Source: an uncultured archaeon
Lineage (GTDB): Archaea > Asgardarchaeota > Lokiarchaeia > Sigyniarchaeales > SOKP01
NCBI GenBank assembly: GCA_964493715.1
Contig: CAZBPC010000019.1
Location: forward strand, 12,715 to 46,772
Direction of reading: 5' to 3'
DNA: 34,058 nucleotides
In this document: piece by piece, positions 23,334-30,371 of the stretch
Layout of the letters: each line of letters starts with the position of its first letter
Numbering within the stretch: the first letter of the stretch is position 1
The notes under the pieces: generated by a model
Database searches by the model: none
Told to the model about the DNA's origin: nothing
What the model saw: only the letters and a program-made list of their open reading frames with translations
Position numbers and translations under genes: made by a program

Positions 23334-24119
23334 TTAACTTTGAAATCTCTTTTCTAGTGTCTTTTCATGCAAAAAGAAAGCAAGAAATAGAAAACCAAGA
23401 CCAAGTAAAGAGAGTATTATCAGATCTATCAATATCCCGAACATCCCAAATACACTTAAATCTCCAAGACTAACATTTATTATGTCAATAAAATAAGTTA
23501 GTGGAGATATATACGCTATTGGCGTTAATACAATTGGTATAAATAATGGAGTCATGAATACAAGAGGGAATTTTATAAGAATGGTAAAAACCATTGTACT
23601 CCCTGGCGTACTTGATGATGGAACCGAAAGTATTAAACTAAAACATGAAAATGCCAAACCCGCAACGATCATTCCCACTATTATAAGCAACAAGTTAAAA
23701 TTAAGCGAAATTACTGAGAAAATAGATCCAAGTATCAAGGGAATTGAAGAAAAAAGTATTCCGTAAATTAAAGAACTCCACATACTTCCAAGTAGTATTG
23801 TTTTAATCGAAATTGGGCAAGTTATTAATCTCTCTAATGTTTTTTGCATAGCTTCCCATGGAAAGACAATTGGTCCTAGGGAGGTTGAAGTTAAAAATAA
23901 GATCATAGCCATCATACCAGAAATCAAATAGATTGATTGAATATTTCTGCCAATTGTAAGAGCTACAAAAAGTATTAACGGAAAAAGTATTCCTTGAATA
24001 AGCACAGGAGGTTTATTATAATAGATTCTGAGATCTTTCTTAGTAATTATAAAAGATCTTCGAATTTGAGTACCAACACTTCTGAATTTCGACATTTCAT
24101 AATCTACAGATTTGTTCAC
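23334..24119 (-). CDS. ABC-2 type exporter permease
   Basis: Six TM segments, LERL..CPI, SPLTY; overlaps the ATPase stop codon. Confidence 0.85.
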   Translation of the reverse strand: MNKSVDYEMSKFRSVGTQIRRSFIITKKDLRIYYNKPPVLIQGILFPLILFVALTIGRNIQSIYLISGMMAMILFLTSTSLGPIVFPWEAMQKTLERLITCPISIKTILLGSMWSSLIYGILFSSIPLILGSIFSVISLNFNLLLIIVGMIVAGLAFSCFSLILSVPSSSTPGSTMVFTILIKFPLVFMTPLFIPIVLTPIAYISPLTYFIDIINVSLGDLSVFGMFGILIDLIILSLLGLGFLFLAFFLHEKTLEKRFQS

Positions 24120-25114
24120 TTTGACCCACCTCTTTCTATAATTTTTAAGAAAGCTTCTTCTAATTTGGGTTGATATGTTATCAGTTTTTTAATTTTCAGA
24201 TTATTAGTTCTAACGTAATCGATTATTTCGCATATGGAATTATGTATATCATCAACAATAATGTGATATCCTCCATTTACTTCTTGAACTTTGTTTATAT
24301 AGTTCAGTTTCTCAATTTCATTTTTTAACAAACCGTTTTCAACGGATAGATCTATTGCTTGATATTCTTGAACGAGAACTTTAAAATTTTCAGGGGTATC
24401 TAAACTTATTATCTTACCTTTATTAATAATAGCGATCCTATGACATAATTCATTTGCTATATCCATATCATGTGTGGTTAGGAAGATTGTGGTTCCTTTT
24501 TTATTGTATTCCAATATTATTTCTTTGATAATTCTAGCTGACTGGACATCTAAACCACTAGTAGGTTCGTCTAAAAATAGAATTTCTGGATTGCTCATTA
24601 AAGCCATGCTCAACAGTAAACGTTGTTTCATCCCTTTTGAGTATGTTTTGGCTTTAATATTCTTTTTTTCTAAAAGCTCGAATTCTTTAAGTAAATACTC
24701 CGCTCTGTTTTTCCTTTCTTCTTTAGATAATCCATATAATTCTCCAATAAGTAAAAGATTGTGCCATCCACTTAAATCAGTATATACACTTGCTTCCTCT
24801 GGCACATTTCCAATTAGCTGCTTTATATGTAATGACTCAGTCCTCGAATCCTTTCCAAATATTGTAATACTACCAATGGTCGGTTTCAGAACGCCTGTCA
24901 ACATGCGAATCGTTGTTGTCTTCCCAGCACCATTCGGTCCTAAAAATCCAAAAATCTCTCCTTTCTTAACTTTAAAACTTATGTTATCAACAGCCTTAAA
25001 TTCCTTTCCTGAATTATCTCCATTGGATTTCGATTTTGAGTGCATTTTAGCTTTTCGAGATACTTCAAAAAATTTCGAAAGATTCTTTACTATAATCGCA
25101 ACCATATTCAACAC
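24116..25114 (-). CDS. ABC-2 type exporter ATP-binding protein
   Basis: GPNGAGKTT Walker A, YSKGMKQR signature, FLDEPTSGLD Walker B; the start may be the ATG at 25105. Confidence 0.92.
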   Translation of the reverse strand: MLNMVAIIVKNLSKFFEVSRKAKMHSKSKSNGDNSGKEFKAVDNISFKVKKGEIFGFLGPNGAGKTTTIRMLTGVLKPTIGSITIFGKDSRTESLHIKQLIGNVPEEASVYTDLSGWHNLLLIGELYGLSKEERKNRAEYLLKEFELLEKKNIKAKTYSKGMKQRLLLSMALMSNPEILFLDEPTSGLDVQSARIIKEIILEYNKKGTTIFLTTHDMDIANELCHRIAIINKGKIISLDTPENFKVLVQEYQAIDLSVENGLLKNEIEKLNYINKVQEVNGGYHIIVDDIHNSICEIIDYVRTNNLKIKKLITYQPKLEEAFLKIIERGGSK

Positions 25115-25413: not shown

Positions 25414-25758
25414 ATGAAGGAAATTAACTTAGATGATATAGGGGACTATATTAGGGCTTTGCATTGTGGTATTCGATGGCAAATAATTGATTTTTTAAAA
25501 GACGCTCCTAAAAGCTCAGAGGAAATCTTCCTGTATTTGAAAGAGTTAAGGAAAAAAATAAAAATCGATAAAACACAATGTAAAGGCGGTTGCCATAATG
25601 AGTTTAAAAATGAGATCAAAAAGCAAAATGTCTATTATCACTTACGAGAGCTTGAAAAAGTGGGGATCATTATTTTAGAAGATTATAAGCCAAGTGAGAG
25701 AGCGCCAGAAAAGGTTTGGAAATTAAATCTTGAGAAAATAATAATCAAATTTAAATAA
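25414..25758 (+). CDS. ArsR-like winged-helix transcription regulator
   Basis: RAL..GIRWQI..FL, VYYHLRELEKVGII, PEKVWKL; CKGGCH insertion. Confidence 0.8.
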   Translation: MKEINLDDIGDYIRALHCGIRWQIIDFLKDAPKSSEEIFLYLKELRKKIKIDKTQCKGGCHNEFKNEIKKQNVYYHLRELEKVGIIILEDYKPSERAPEKVWKLNLEKIIIKFK

Positions 25759-25991: not shown

Positions 25992-26007
25992 GAAAAAATA
26001 TTTAAAA
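25992..26007 (+). promoter_or_regulatory. BRE/TATA promoter of the leader-leuS transcript
   Basis: GAAAAAA followed by TATTTAAAA, about 27 nt upstream of the leader ATG at 26030 (spacing typical of leaderless transcripts). Confidence 0.5.
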
Positions 26008-26029
26008 CAATAATTCTAATTAGATTATA

Positions 26030-26116
26030 ATGACAAATAATAGCAACATTGCAAATCACATCCTAAAGAAAAATTTAGCTTTAGATGACTTGCTAGTTCT
26101 ATTATTACTGTTATGA
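26030..26116 (+). CDS. Leucine-rich leader peptide upstream of leuS (MTNNSNIANHILKKNLALDDLLVLLLLL*)
   Basis: 10 of 28 codons are Leu, including 7 of the last 8; ends 129 nt before leuS; followed immediately by a stem-loop. Confidence 0.75.
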   Translation: MTNNSNIANHILKKNLALDDLLVLLLLL

Positions 26117-26245
26117 ACGGGACAAATCCGCTCCTTCTCTTTCTGAAGTATTCCCATGGATTTGTCCGTTTGGCATGAATATGTAATTGAAAGAGATAGT
26201 AGCGCGAACTTTTTCCCTAATAATAAAAAATAAGGAAGGAAAAAA
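26116..26245 (+). promoter_or_regulatory. Attenuator-like structured RNA between the leader peptide and leuS
   Basis: AACGGGACAAATCC (26116-26129) pairs with GGATTTGTCCGTT (26158-26170). Loop TCTCTTTC (26136-26143) is complementary to GAAAGAGA (26189-26196). TTTTTCC near 26210 is complementary to GGAAAAA just before the ATG. Confidence 0.6.
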
Positions 26246-29134
26246 ATGTACAATGCGCGTGAAATTGAAAAAAAATGGCAACATAGATGGCAGGAGGAAA
26301 AAATTTTTGAAGCAAATTGTGATTTGAAAAAAGCAAAAAAATTTATAACAATCCCTTACCCTTACGCTTCAGGTCCACAACATATAGGACATGGAAGAAG
26401 TTATGCAAATGGAGACATTTTTACTCGCTATTATCGAGCGAAAGGATTTAATGTATTACTCCCAATGGCATTTCATATTACTGGAACTCCAGTATTAGCG
26501 ATATCATCAGCTATTGAACGTGGAGAAAAGAAGATAGTTGATAGAATGTATGATTATGTGTCCCTTCACACATCGAATGAAAGTAAAATCAAGCAAATCG
26601 TGGACGAATTCGTCGACCCATGGAATGTGGTGAAATATTTTTCTAATGCTATCAAGGAAGATTTCATATCTCTTGGAATGAGCATAGATTGGAGAAGAGA
26701 ATTTACCACGGGAGACCCTACTTATAACAAGTTTATTGAATGGCAGTTCCAGAAGCTGATGGATAAAGGATACATAGAGAAAGGGGCATATCCCATATTA
26801 TTTTGTCCCCGAGATAATAACGCTGTTGGGGAAGATGACATAGCAAGTGGAGATGAATTAGACTTGAAGATCAATGAATTTATTTGTATCAAATTTCCCT
26901 ATGAAGATGGATATTTAGTACCTGCAACTTTAAGACCGGAAACCATTTTTGGAGCTACTAACATTTGGGTAAATCCAAAGGGGATTTATGTCTGGATTCT
27001 AATAAATGGAGAAAAATGGATAGTTTCAGAGGAAGCTGTCGAATTATTAAGAAATCAAGGAAAAAATGTGGAAATTCTCGAGAAATTCTCTGGAAAATTT
27101 CTGATTGGAAAAAAAGCAAGACTGATAGGAGGTAATAGAAGCTTACCAATACTGCCGGGTGATTTTGTAGATACCTCCACTGCAACTGGTGTTGTTTATT
27201 CAGTTCCCGCTCACGCTCCCTATGATTATATTGCTTTATTGGATTTACAGAAAAACGAAGAGATTATTGAACAGTATCATCTTGATAAAGCTGCGATTAA
27301 AAGTATAAAACCCATTGTTATTATCAAATCAAAAGGAATCAGTGATATTCCAGCTAAAGGTTATTGTGAAAAATTTGGGGTTGAAACTCAATTAGATAAA
27401 GAAAAATTAGATAGGGCAACTGTAGAACTATACAAGAGTGAATTCTATAATGGAATTCTAAATGAAAAATGTGGAATATACAATAAAAAATCTGTGAATG
27501 AAGCAGTTAACGAAGTAAAACAAGATTTAACCAATGAGGGAAAAATTGATAGGGTTTATGTTCCCGTAACTCGAAATTTGAAGTGTCGTTGTGGTGAAAA
27601 GATTATAGTAACGATTTTAGAAGATCAGTGGTTTCTCAATTTCAATTCGGGAGTCTGGAAGGAAAAGGCCTTCGAATGTCTTGAAAAAATGGAAATCGTT
27701 CCGAAAAAATATCGGCAAAATTTCGTGAATGTATTTCATTGGTTAGAAAAAAGACCATGCGCAAGAAAACGGGGATTAGGTACAAAATTACCCTTTGATA
27801 AAAATTGGATCATTGAATCATTAAGTGACTCAACTATTTACATGAGTTTCTACACCATCATTCACATAATAAATAGGAATAAGATTGAGGCGGATCATTT
27901 AATTCCAGAAGTATTTGATTTCGTTTTTTTGGAAAAAGGTGATATTAATCGGGTATCTAAATTGTCTCAAATTCCAAAGGCAGTATTAAGCGAGATGCAC
28001 TCCGAATTTTCATACTGGTATCCTGTTGATCATAGACATACCGCAATAATGCACATCTCTAATCACTTGAGCTTTTACCTATTCCATCATGCAGGAATTT
28101 TTCCAGAAAAATATTGGCCAAGATTGTTAACATTAATAGAACCCGTCATTGTTGAAGGTGAAAAAATGGGAAAATCTAAAGGAAATCTAATTTCATTAGC
28201 AGAAATTCGAGAAAAGTACTCCACAGATTTATTTCGCTTTTACATATCACATAGTGCAGATCTTGGTGCTAGCATGGATTGGAGAGAGAAGAAAATCCAA
28301 TCTGTTTCAAACCATATTGAAAAATTTTATAGGTTTGTCAGAGAAAACATAACTAAATCGAAGCAAATTGATCTGAAAATTAATGATATTGAATTAGATT
28401 ATTCCAGATTAATTCTCTCAAAAATAGTTAGGAATTTCATAAATGCTGCAAACGCTCTAAAAAAGTTTAATCTACGGAAGTACCTTCAAATTGGATTTTA
28501 TGAGACTTTTAGTTTGATCCAAGAATTCAAAAAAAATGCCGAGGATAAATCTGAGTTTATGGTTGTGTTTAATATTATGATATCAGATTGGTTAAAATTA
28601 TTATCTTTAACCCTTCCTCATGTTTGTGAAGAACTATGGGAATATGCTGAACTGGAAGGATTTGTTTCAAATACTTTATGGGGTGATTTTAATGAAAAAT
28701 ATCTTGATCAAGATATAGAAAATGAATACGAATACATATCTTCTATCATAGAGGATATTCTAAACATACAAAAAATTGCTAATACACAAAACAATGACAA
28801 GATTTTCATTTACACATCTCCAAAGTGGAAAATAGAAGTTTTAAATGTCATAATTTCAAAAAAAGGCGATTTTAATTTAATTTTGACCGAACTCAAGAAA
28901 GATATTAATATTATGAAAAATAAACAACTCATCCCATTTGTCAAGTCTCAAATTAAAAATAGAGTTTGGGAAATCAATTATCAAAATATGGACGAAAATA
29001 AACTCATAAAGAAATTCAATAACTTTATTGAGAAACGAGTTGGAAAAAAGATTGTTTTAAATTCTACACACGATCCCACTGGAAAAGCCTTGAAAGCCAA
29101 TCCATTTAAACCGGCAATCTATATAGGAGATTAA
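26246..29134 (+). CDS. leuS: Leucine--tRNA ligase, archaeal/eukaryotic type
   Basis: PYPY.SG..HIGH, DWRREFTT, ATLRPETIFGATN, SVPAHAPYDY, IESLSDSTIY, KMGKSKGN, KA.PFKPAIY. Confidence 0.96.
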   Translation: MYNAREIEKKWQHRWQEEKIFEANCDLKKAKKFITIPYPYASGPQHIGHGRSYANGDIFTRYYRAKGFNVLLPMAFHITGTPVLAISSAIERGEKKIVDRMYDYVSLHTSNESKIKQIVDEFVDPWNVVKYFSNAIKEDFISLGMSIDWRREFTTGDPTYNKFIEWQFQKLMDKGYIEKGAYPILFCPRDNNAVGEDDIASGDELDLKINEFICIKFPYEDGYLVPATLRPETIFGATNIWVNPKGIYVWILINGEKWIVSEEAVELLRNQGKNVEILEKFSGKFLIGKKARLIGGNRSLPILPGDFVDTSTATGVVYSVPAHAPYDYIALLDLQKNEEIIEQYHLDKAAIKSIKPIVIIKSKGISDIPAKGYCEKFGVETQLDKEKLDRATVELYKSEFYNGILNEKCGIYNKKSVNEAVNEVKQDLTNEGKIDRVYVPVTRNLKCRCGEKIIVTILEDQWFLNFNSGVWKEKAFECLEKMEIVPKKYRQNFVNVFHWLEKRPCARKRGLGTKLPFDKNWIIESLSDSTIYMSFYTIIHIINRNKIEADHLIPEVFDFVFLEKGDINRVSKLSQIPKAVLSEMHSEFSYWYPVDHRHTAIMHISNHLSFYLFHHAGIFPEKYWPRLLTLIEPVIVEGEKMGKSKGNLISLAEIREKYSTDLFRFYISHSADLGASMDWREKKIQSVSNHIEKFYRFVRENITKSKQIDLKINDIELDYSRLILSKIVRNFINAANALKKFNLRKYLQIGFYETFSLIQEFKKNAEDKSEFMVVFNIMISDWLKLLSLTLPHVCEELWEYAELEGFVSNTLWGDFNEKYLDQDIENEYEYISSIIEDILNIQKIANTQNNDKIFIYTSPKWKIEVLNVIISKKGDFNLILTELKKDINIMKNKQLIPFVKSQIKNRVWEINYQNMDENKLIKKFNNFIEKRVGKKIVLNSTHDPTGKALKANPFKPAIYIGD

Positions 29135-29177: not shown

Positions 29178-30371
29178 CTATTCAAATTTTAAAGTATTAA
29201 TGATTCTCTTCATACAATTTTCTAAAATTGATTTTGGACAAGCTACATTGATCCTTTCAAATCCAGAACCACCTGGACCGAACATTGTACCATCATCAAA
29301 CACTACTTTAGCTTTTTTAAGCATTAAGTTTTTAAGTTCTTCATCGCTGAAATTAAGACAGTTGAAATCTAACCAAGCGAGATATGTACCCTCGGGGTCG
29401 ATAAATTTTACACTCGGGAGTTCTGTTTCTATAAATTCCTTTAAATAATTGAAATTGTTATTAATATAATGTAAAACTTGCTCCAACCAATCTGATCCTT
29501 CATTATATGCTGCAATCATTGCCACAATTCCAAACGTATTAGGAATATGTATTCCATTTTTATGAACTATCGTATGGTTAAAAGATTCTCTTATTTTTTC
29601 GTTAGGTATGATAATATTTGAAATTTGAAGTCCTGCCATATTAAAAGTTTTACTTGGGGCAGTACACATTATAGTATTTTGCTCAAATTCTTCTGAAATC
29701 GTTGAAAATAAGGTGTGCTGAAATCCTGGGAGAATTAAATCATGATGAATTTCATCTGCTATTATCATAATATCGTTCTCAAGACAAATTTCACCAATTC
29801 TTTTTAGTTCTTGTTGAGTCCAAATTCGTCCTACTGGGTTATGAGGACTACATAGAATAAATATTTTAGCAAGAGGATCTTTAGCTTTTTCTTCAAAATC
29901 CTCAAAATCAAATTTATATCTTTTATTTTCATAGTGCAATTGGTTGATTAAAACGTAACGACCATTATTGGTTATGGCGGAAAAAAAGGGATAATATACA
30001 GGGGATTGTATTATGATTTTATCACCAATATTGGAAAATGTTTGTATCATCATGTAAATTGCGGGGACTATTCCCGGACTGTAAATTATCCAATTAGGGT
30101 CAACGTTCCAACCGTGTTTTCGATGCATCCATCCTATAACAGAATCATAATAAGTTGACGTTTCATGCCAATTATATCCATAGATTTCTTCATTTGCTCT
30201 TTTCTTTATAGCGTCGATTACCGGTTGAGGACATTGAAAATCCATGTCTGCAACCCAGAGAGATAATAAATCATCATCATCCGTCTTAAAAAATTTTTGG
30301 AGTGCTTGCTTACTCCATTTTAGTGAGAAAGAAGAATCTCTATCAATTAACCTATCAAAATCATATTTCAT
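29178..30371 (-). CDS. patB: PLP-dependent cystathionine beta-lyase / C-S lyase (MalY/PatB)
   Basis: WVADMDF, CSPHNPVGR.W, ADEIH, APSKTFN, EGTYLAWLD, RINVACP. Confidence 0.92.
   Translation of the reverse strand: MKYDFDRLIDRDSSFSLKWSKQALQKFFKTDDDDLLSLWVADMDFQCPQPVIDAIKKRANEEIYGYNWHETSTYYDSVIGWMHRKHGWNVDPNWIIYSPGIVPAIYMMIQTFSNIGDKIIIQSPVYYPFFSAITNNGRYVLINQLHYENKRYKFDFEDFEEKAKDPLAKIFILCSPHNPVGRIWTQQELKRIGEICLENDIMIIADEIHHDLILPGFQHTLFSTISEEFEQNTIMCTAPSKTFNMAGLQISNIIIPNEKIRESFNHTIVHKNGIHIPNTFGIVAMIAAYNEGSDWLEQVLHYINNNFNYLKEFIETELPSVKFIDPEGTYLAWLDFNCLNFSDEELKNLMLKKAKVVFDDGTMFGPGGSGFERINVACPKSILENCMKRIINTLKFE

Follow-up and report, generated by a model that had tools for sequence, protein, structure and literature searches.

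Leader-peptide attenuation is the textbook example of transcription-translation coupling put to regulatory use, and it is regarded as bacterial. The familiar attenuators include leuL, trpL and hisL of Escherichia coli, together with pheM, which precedes pheST. In Firmicutes, second copies of aminoacyl-tRNA synthetase genes such as thrZ and tyrZ are controlled by the T-box, a tRNA-binding RNA that senses the charging state of the synthetase's own tRNA. A further design is that of the mycobacterial "Cys ribulon", built on short, leaderless polycysteine open reading frames (ORFs); according to Canestrari et al. (bioRxiv 10.1101/834739), ribosomes stalled on these ORFs block the structures that sequester the ribosome-binding site (RBS) of the next gene. 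Here we describe a candidate archaeal device of this general kind in a 34,058-nucleotide (nt) stretch of contig CAZBPC010000019.1 from an uncultured Asgard archaeon (hereafter, the window): an upstream ORF (uORF) that ends in a run of leucine codons and lies directly before leuS, a gene for leucyl-tRNA synthetase (LeuRS). From sequence comparisons we put at roughly two in three the probability that the leuS leader acts, through the ribosome, as a near-leaderless sensor of the charging of Leu-tRNA.

The locus is laid out as follows, with the evidence for each element in brackets:

25992-26007, + strand: promoter element resembling a transcription factor B recognition element (BRE) and TATA box, GAAAAAA-TATTTAAAA, full stretch GAAAAAATATTTAAAA (sequence)
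26030-26116, + strand: uORF, ATG start, 28 codons plus TGA, encoding MTNNSNIANHILKKNLALDDLLVLLLLL followed by the stop (sequence, ORF list)
26090-26113, + strand: Leu-rich tail of the uORF, TTG CTA GTT CTA TTA TTA CTG TTA (sequence)
26232-26239, + strand: purine-rich word resembling a Shine-Dalgarno (SD) site, AAGGAAGG, 6 nt 5' of the leuS ATG (sequence)
26246-29134, + strand: leuS, archaeal-type leucyl-tRNA synthetase, 962 amino acids (aa) (ORF list, Pfam, NCBIfam)

The preliminary description of this DNA, made from its letters, had reported a 28-codon Leu-run ORF using four different Leu codons upstream of leuS and a BRE/TATA element about 27 nt before its ATG. The sequence and the ORF list agree with the former, and the latter was seen at the position listed, with the TATA centre at that distance. 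Seven of the last eight codons of the uORF specify Leu (LLVLLLLL, then the stop); about one third of all its codons do so, most of them in these last eight, abutting the stop, and the tail codons are presumed to be the sensing codons. A gap of 129 nt separates the uORF from leuS, which has the Pfam domains tRNA-synt_1 and Anticodon_1 and matches the NCBIfam models TIGR00395 (leuS_arch; 935.7 bits, cutoff 648.5) and NF008957 (1079.8 bits, cutoff 677). Its translation shows QHIGHG and KMGKSKG, which we take to be the HIGH motif and a KMSKS-type motif. The other leaders described below have purine-rich or GGTG-like words 6-12 nt before the leuS ATG, and such words are putative SD sites. A cis-regulatory leader is the best explanation of the 216-nt stretch from the promoter (~26000) to leuS.

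Like the bacterial attenuators, this leader has a short ORF with an excess of codons for the amino acid that matches the regulated gene; these codons lie just 5' of the first arm of conserved helices that may compete; and several pathways in one genome (here Leu, Trp and His) have such leaders. Unlike them, it belongs to an archaeal host with a TBP/TFB promoter, its uORF is predicted to be leaderless or nearly so, there is no uniform hairpin-plus-U terminator before leuS, and the second helix is built on the loop of the first hairpin, not on its 3' arm. No sequence or Rfam similarity to bacterial leaders was seen. The parallel with the T-box-controlled second synthetase genes is that an extra synthetase copy would be under a sensor of the charging of its own tRNA, although here the sensor is predicted to be a translated ORF and not a tRNA-binding RNA, and there was no T-box match. 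With the Cys ribulon as described in that report (10.1101/834739), the likenesses are a leaderless sensory short ORF as first cistron, a run of cognate codons and a design shared by several loci, amounting to a ribosome-coordinated regulon; the differences are that no consistent RBS sequestration is predicted here, that the gene start lies 112-159 nt from the uORF stop, and that the host belongs to another domain of life. A search of the full-text literature, which covers few subscription journals and no supplements and is not proof of absence, returned no paper that describes, for any archaeon, leader peptides with cognate codons or attenuation mediated by the ribosome. In the portions available, a ribosome profiling (Ribo-seq) study of the archaeon Methanosarcina (PMC11456600) raises uORFs as a possibility and does not mention attenuation, and in those of PMC2965389 archaea appear in the reference list only.

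The evidence that carries the sensor reading begins with the conservation of the uORF, for which two collections of loci were compared, one from 24 genomes of the same genus and one from GTDB-named genomes (80 LeuRS loci, in which this clade is represented by metagenome-assembled genomes (MAGs) of Promethearchaeota). An orthologue of the window LeuRS, at 60-78% identity, occurs in 18 of the 24 same-genus genomes. All 18 same-genus loci with at least 270 nt of upstream sequence have the uORF, which is 26-32 codons long, ends in a Leu run and lies 112-159 nt before leuS; one locus (L010) with 53 nt of upstream sequence was left out of the count. The uORF is likewise present in 18/18 Promethearchaeota-type loci of the GTDB-named genomes. 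The uORF of one locus (L049) was found in two inspections of the locus and missed by a stricter script. In total, 36 of 36 related loci have the uORF, giving 30 distinct leaders, all from one Promethearchaeota genus. Among the other 62 LeuRS loci (46-60% identity; DPANN, ANME-1, Methanosarcinales and others) a Leu-tailed small ORF was found in only two, and neither of the two loci of 46%-identity homologues from other genera (L019 and L020) has a Leu-run uORF. The gene upstream of the leader varies: it encodes a 114-aa helix-turn-helix (HTH) protein in the window and is a 134-aa ORF in L004 and L009. This neighbour thus differs between loci, and the leader travels with leuS. In the genome of the window (G000; 3.68 Mb, 31% GC, with the window on its contig C19), an nhmmer search with the leader alignment gave the window site as its sole match.

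Alignment of 29 leaders (A1) revealed the signature of a coding sequence. The leader of L049, in which the downstream part and the gene start are uncertain, was omitted from this alignment and from the pairing, folding, coding, accessibility, RBS-complementarity and TATA counts given below. The uORF frame is open in 29/29 leaders and the other two frames in 0/29 and 3/29, and all gaps within the uORF span 3, 6 or 9 columns. Synonymous changes make up 22.9% of pairwise codon differences in frame versus 8.2 and 8.1% in the shifted frames, and within the Leu tail the shares are 57.3% versus 8.5 and 10.3%. In the 30 distinct leaders, one Leu column has TTA in 19, TTG in 10 and CTA in 1, the next has CTT in 13, CTC in 8, TTA in 6, CTA in 2 and CTG in 1, and another has TTA in 30 of 30. 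Leu is thus retained through first- and third-position changes, including changes at two positions such as CTT to TTA. The stop codon itself varies (TGA 14, TAA 13, TAG 3). The peptides are of two types, ending in LDDLLAVLLLLL and KKVLLQALLQLLL, and what is common to both is the Leu positions. Leu accounts for 263 codons in the 29 leaders (~32%), versus 9.9% in the long ORFs of the genome. TTA makes up 68% of leader Leu codons and 47% of Leu codons in the genome; this dominance of the genome's commonest Leu codon argues against a rare-codon design. Together, these patterns point to selection on the uORF as a translated frame.

The promoter is placed to serve the uORF. A purine run and a TATA-like box upstream of the uORF are conserved in every leader with sequence there (L006 has none upstream of the promoter), and 27/29 leaders have a TATA-like word at -42 to -19 relative to the uORF ATG, compared with 5/29 that have one at this distance from the leuS ATG. 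The spacing between TATA and uORF predicts a transcript start 0-8 nt before the uORF ATG and therefore a leaderless or near-leaderless uORF; no SD-like word lies between the predicted start and this ATG. We infer from this arrangement that leuS is transcribed from the uORF promoter.

Three helices, designated S0, S1 and S2, were identified in the leader RNA, the last in a short and a long form. Their positions in the window, together with that of a T run next to the long form, are as follows:

26030-26047 pairing with 26096-26114, + strand: helix S0, within the uORF (minimum free energy (MFE) fold of the window)
26117-26129 pairing with 26158-26169, + strand: hairpin S1, with a pyrimidine-rich loop (sequence, RNAalifold)
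26136-26143 (UCUCUUUC, the pyrimidine tract in the S1 loop) pairing with 26189-26196 (GAAAGAGA), + strand: helix S2 (S2a) (alignment)
26119-26143 pairing with 26189-26217, + strand: long S2 helix of the window, which excludes S1 (MFE fold)
26210-26214, + strand: T5 run immediately 3' to the long helix, which might act as an archaeal signal for termination (sequence)

In the family core of S0, codons 5-7 pair with the codons before the final Leu run (A1 columns 13-20 with 67-74); 83.7% of these positions are paired, and four of the seven pairs have changed on both sides. The 5' arm of S1 starts at the base directly after the uORF stop in the alignment, and S1 is the sole helix in the RNAalifold consensus (90.2% paired, 6/12 pairs changed on both sides; mean folding free energy of the hairpin alone -12.8 kcal/mol). 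The partner of S2, some 50 nt downstream of the pyrimidine tract, is paired with it at 92.7% (2/8 pairs changed on both sides). Extended inward to 16 pairs, S2 is 84.2% paired with 7/16 changed on both sides, and controls in which the strand was slid gave 43-67%. For S0, S1 and S2a together, 89.3% of positions are paired versus 38-55% with the 3' partners slid, 12 pairs have changed on both sides, and their covariation score was reached by none of 500 shuffles.

MFE folds computed from the stop onward contain S2a in 25 of the 29 leaders and S1 in none. S1 covaries and is absent from these folds, and this is the pattern expected of two alternative conformers. Two covarying helices that do not coexist in nested folds, the weaker being transcribed first, would be the mark of a kinetic switch. 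The fold z-score of 26020-26260 is -2.52. Rfam gave no match at gathering score anywhere in the window and, between 25950 and 26300 at E<=10, a chance-level match to a viral pseudoknot alone (E=9.5). There are no tRNA genes within the window.

A second small ORF (26113-26178, + strand; MNGTNPLLLFLKYSHGFVRLA followed by a stop) begins at an ATGA overlap with the uORF stop. It has a counterpart in only 6 of 18 genus loci, those in which the uORF ends in TTATGA, and, since it runs through hairpin S1, it seems to be a by-product of RNA sequence conservation. We also considered a programmed frameshift or read-through at the Leu run, in view of the possible pseudoknot after the stop, and rejected it on the closure of the other two frames (0/29 and 3/29 open) and on the 6/18 occurrence of the overlapping ORF. 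A second uORF after an AGGUGG word was rejected as well, having by eye neither a conserved start nor a conserved frame.

An unbiased scan of intergenic small ORFs in the genome of the window yielded two further cognate-codon leaders, both outside the window:

L111:1291-1344 (G000:C11:10501-10554), + strand: Trp-rich uORF, MLTEKMTFWRWQWQWRS followed by the stop, ending WRWQWQWRS
L141:1268-1414 (G000:C66:4963-5109), + strand: His-rich uORF, ending FFSHLHHHQHHK followed by the stop, with HLHHHQHHK as its last residues

The first lies 156 nt before a TrpB2-type gene (NF009057, 643.7 bits; TIGR01415, 595.8 bits). A uORF with a W-x-W(-x-W) motif precedes trpB2 at 28/30 and 4/6 loci, or 32/36, drawn from four families within the order; none was seen in any of the three genomes assigned to genus g2, and the upstream sequence of one locus (L138) was only 66 nt long. 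The single-contig genomes G033 and G038 (loci L140 and L137) are among those with the Trp leader. In this leader a conserved hairpin spans the stop, built from the final codons and the sequence that follows, and U5 and further conserved hairpins come after it. The second lies 86 nt before hisIE (PRA-CH plus PRA-PH). Its His-rich end is kept in 5/5 loci of the hisIE orthologue, one of which has an in-frame 36-nt deletion, and it is absent before the other forms of hisI(E). The His leader has a 14-bp hairpin starting at the stop codon, then a second hairpin, UUUU and a GGGGG SD word. In all three leaders, Leu, Trp and His, the cognate codons and a conserved hairpin both abut the stop; what the Trp and His leaders share with the Leu leader is cognate codons and not an RNA motif.

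Two other ORFs of this kind were examined as candidate leaders and rejected: a W/R-rich ORF before carA (G000:C68:1008-1085, + strand), kept in 1/25 relatives, and an Ile-run ORF 24 nt before a class I/II aminotransferase gene (G000:C6:26119-26172, - strand), kept in 2/21. Three conserved cognate pairs set against unconserved non-cognate ones make the strongest argument for the uORFs as sensors. The preliminary description had read the leuS leader as attenuation-like amino-acid sensing and had looked to related genomes for a Leu-run uORF with synonymous variation, and to other genes for cognate-codon leaders. Both were found (18/18 and 18/18 loci with the tail share reported above; Trp before trpB2 and His before hisIE), and every comparative test that was run supported its reading.

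The helices also lend themselves to an account in which the uORF plays little part. The element might be a structured RNA (S0, S1 and S2, perhaps with a pseudoknot) whose ligand is a protein (LeuRS, for instance, which would then regulate its own gene), a tRNA or a metabolite, with the frame secondary or serving for ribosome loading. Bacterial thrS and the T-box are precedents for control by structured RNA. Covariation supports all three helices, S0 explains the conserved N-terminal and A-V-L-L codons, and the fold z-score is in keeping with a structured element. This account is the best placed of the alternatives, and we nevertheless consider it unlikely, as it does not explain a frame open in every aligned leader, in-frame indels, the synonymous change in the tail or the two-position Leu codon swaps. 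It would also leave aside the lack of any Rfam match, T-box included, the absence from one clade of the UGGN-like word after S1 (by eye), and Trp and His leaders that share cognate codons and not a common RNA motif.

The conservation of D-L-L-A-V-L-L-L in most leaders could instead be that of an arrest peptide, whose nascent chain (...DLLAVLLL) stalls the ribosome on free leucine or another ligand and not on hungry codons. TnaC, in which the nascent peptide stalls the ribosome in response to tryptophan, is the known model, and the stall site would here adjoin the stop in a TnaC-like manner. We find this improbable: the tail of the second clade (KKVLLQALLQLLL) retains only the Leu positions, helix S0 accounts for the conservation of A-V, and the His and Trp leaders encode unrelated peptides with the same cognate-codon logic.

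Similarly low is the probability that we assign to an independent micro-protein gene, or a dual-function small RNA ending at the T run after S2, with leuS under its own promoter. The hydrophobic tail could mean a membrane-associated peptide, yet it comprises only 8-10 hydrophobic residues and in one clade is an amphipathic Leu/Gln tail. The T5 run does follow the long helix in the window, and the AT-rich spacer before leuS could hide a promoter; against these stand the TATA-like word before leuS in only 5/29 leaders, the lack of a second copy in the genome and the linkage to the LeuRS clade in 36/36 loci with upstream neighbours that differ.

That the ORF is a chance product of AT-rich intergenic sequence has a negligible probability: the genome is 31% GC, TTA accounts for 47% of its Leu codons, more than any other, and Leu/Ile/Phe-rich ORFs are frequent in it, but genome-wide ORF counts, conservation in relatives and the coding tests all contradict such an origin. 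In these counts, the final 9 residues include 7 or more Leu in 10 of the genome's 23,888 ATG ORFs of 15-45 aa. At least 6 Leu in the last 9 occur in 33 ORFs, three of which are free of overlap with any ORF of at least 90 aa on both strands, and the leuS uORF is the only one of these three with a gene starting no more than 300 nt downstream. In a set of 2,266 intergenic small ORFs located at most 350 nt before genes, the leuS uORF is alone in having 7 Leu in a window of 8 residues.

Returning to the uORF as a ribosome-mediated sensor, we propose that the leader would work as follows. When charged tRNA-Leu is scarce, a ribosome would dwell, and presumably stall, on the Leu codons of the uORF. 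As the 5' arm of S1 follows the stop without a gap, it would be covered by a ribosome positioned over the final Leu codons or over the stop; S1 would then be blocked, and the pyrimidine tract would pair with the downstream GAAAGAGA to form S2. When Leu-tRNA is plentiful, the ribosome would terminate and depart, and S1 would form, as it can do first because it is transcribed before the 3' strand of S2. The choice between S1 and S2, which the ribosome would make, would set the amount of full-length, translatable leuS mRNA, and the outcome would be an accessory LeuRS tuned to the charging state of tRNA-Leu.

Several points weigh against this mechanism. Its direction, with starvation turning leuS on, is one that we infer by analogy alone, from bacterial pheST, the T-box and thrZ. 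Pairs were counted on the very sequences that had served to derive the helices, and the leaders, all from one genus, are kin and not independent. Helix S0 explains some of the conserved peptide residues (N-N/K-T-A and A-V-L-L), so that codon sensing does not account for all of the conservation. S1 and the short S2a could coexist as an H-type pseudoknot, and mutual exclusivity is therefore argued for the extended S2 alone. An outward extension of S2 (S2b, A1 columns 108-115 with 182-189) is weak in the alignment and takes variable registers in single-sequence folds. Pairing of the S1 5' arm beyond S2 is a possibility suggested by a modest difference in duplex energy with the region after S2 (cognate -8.3 versus non-cognate -6.6 kcal/mol).

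The output of the proposed switch raises further points of this kind. Archaeal RNA polymerase terminates at oligo-T without the need for a hairpin, and FttA/aCPSF1 acts in archaeal termination. A run of at least five U occurs after S2, ~83-93 nt beyond the stop, in 5/29 leaders, the window included; 21/29 leaders, the window not among them, have such a run within the S1 loop, ~20 nt from the stop. A universal terminator was accordingly rejected: U-runs are frequent and have no one conserved position, and the window lacks the loop U5. The mean unpaired probability of the stretch from the leuS SD to the AUG is 0.59 when free, 0.55 with an early stall and 0.50 with a late stall (ribosome footprint masked), so these predictions for 29 leaders gave no consistent gain in accessibility at the leuS SD/AUG upon masking. 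Nor, in the same 29, does any conserved leader segment pair better with its own leuS RBS than with the RBS of others. On these accessibility and RBS-complementarity predictions, SD sequestration was rejected as a general output, at the level of prediction only.

Conservation stops ~100 nt beyond the uORF stop; the 30-60 nt that immediately precede leuS vary between leaders. Based on this limit and on the U-run, accessibility and RBS-pairing results, we favour an output within the conserved ~100 nt over SD masking, namely early termination of the transcript, its processing, or 3'-end formation that depends on a factor. Judged by prediction, the leader fits neither the bacterial terminator nor the RBS-sequestration scheme. 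The output mechanism is likely to be new, since archaeal RNA polymerase, termination and leaderless initiation are all unlike their bacterial counterparts.

The gene that would be regulated is one of two LeuRS genes in this genome. The other encodes a canonical LeuRS of 933 aa, which is found in nearly all genomes of the order and appears in G000 to be split over contig ends (C44:25799-26026 and C45:1342-2307). The 962-aa LeuRS was not found in six genomes (G003, G005, G009, G015, G019 and G020; completeness 81-100%), and its nearest relatives beyond the genus are DPANN proteins with 56-61% identity over the N-terminus. No Leu-rich uORF was found upstream of the canonical 933-aa LeuRS at any of 15 loci. 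By these sequence criteria the window leuS is an accessory second paralog (LeuRS2) and not the sole leuS.

The closest non-Asgard LeuRS locus (L048:534-653, on the Aenigmatarchaeota MAG contig JASEGQ010000019.1) has a BRE/TATA-like box and, ~27 nt later, a 16-codon ORF with a GTG start (VKHMSESVLFELFLLL, then the stop) in which five of the last eight residues are Leu. This ORF ends 31 nt before the LeuRS ATG and is a single case.

Three sets of neighbours surround the leader and leuS in the window. An ABC-transporter-like pair at 23334-25114 (- strand) comprises a P-loop ATPase-like ORF and a hydrophobic permease-like ORF, as judged from the translations by eye. The 114-aa protein encoded at 25414-25758 (+ strand) has a weak HTH_20 match just under the Pfam cutoff, and a class I/II aminotransferase gene at 29178-30371 lies on the - strand, opposite to leuS. 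No link between the ABC pair, the HTH_20 protein or the aminotransferase and the leader was seen.

Taken more broadly, the three leaders may represent an Asgard regulon of leaderless sensory uORFs (Leu/leuS2, Trp/trpB2, His/hisIE and probably more), which would be the first archaeal case of ribosome-mediated attenuation and in which the switch would act on elongation or 3'-end formation and not through a bacterial-type terminator; we regard this broader proposal as evenly balanced. In such a regulon a hairpin abutting the stop would compete with a long helix that captures its loop, for example exposing or hiding a U/C-rich tract. The occurrence of the Trp leader in four families and of a Leu-rich uORF at the closest DPANN LeuRS suggests that the attenuation device may have an old origin and may travel together with genes.

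For the cell itself, the locus points to a second LeuRS that is predicted to be conditionally expressed. More generally, the three conserved cognate pairs, with their non-cognate look-alikes unconserved, argue that archaeal ribosomes may serve as cis-acting amino-acid sensors. The leaders also provide a simple annotation rule, in which a cognate-codon uORF followed by a hairpin abutting its stop would mark regulated genes in uncultured archaea, and they would offer a testable handle on the use of transcription-translation coupling in the lineage closest to eukaryotes.

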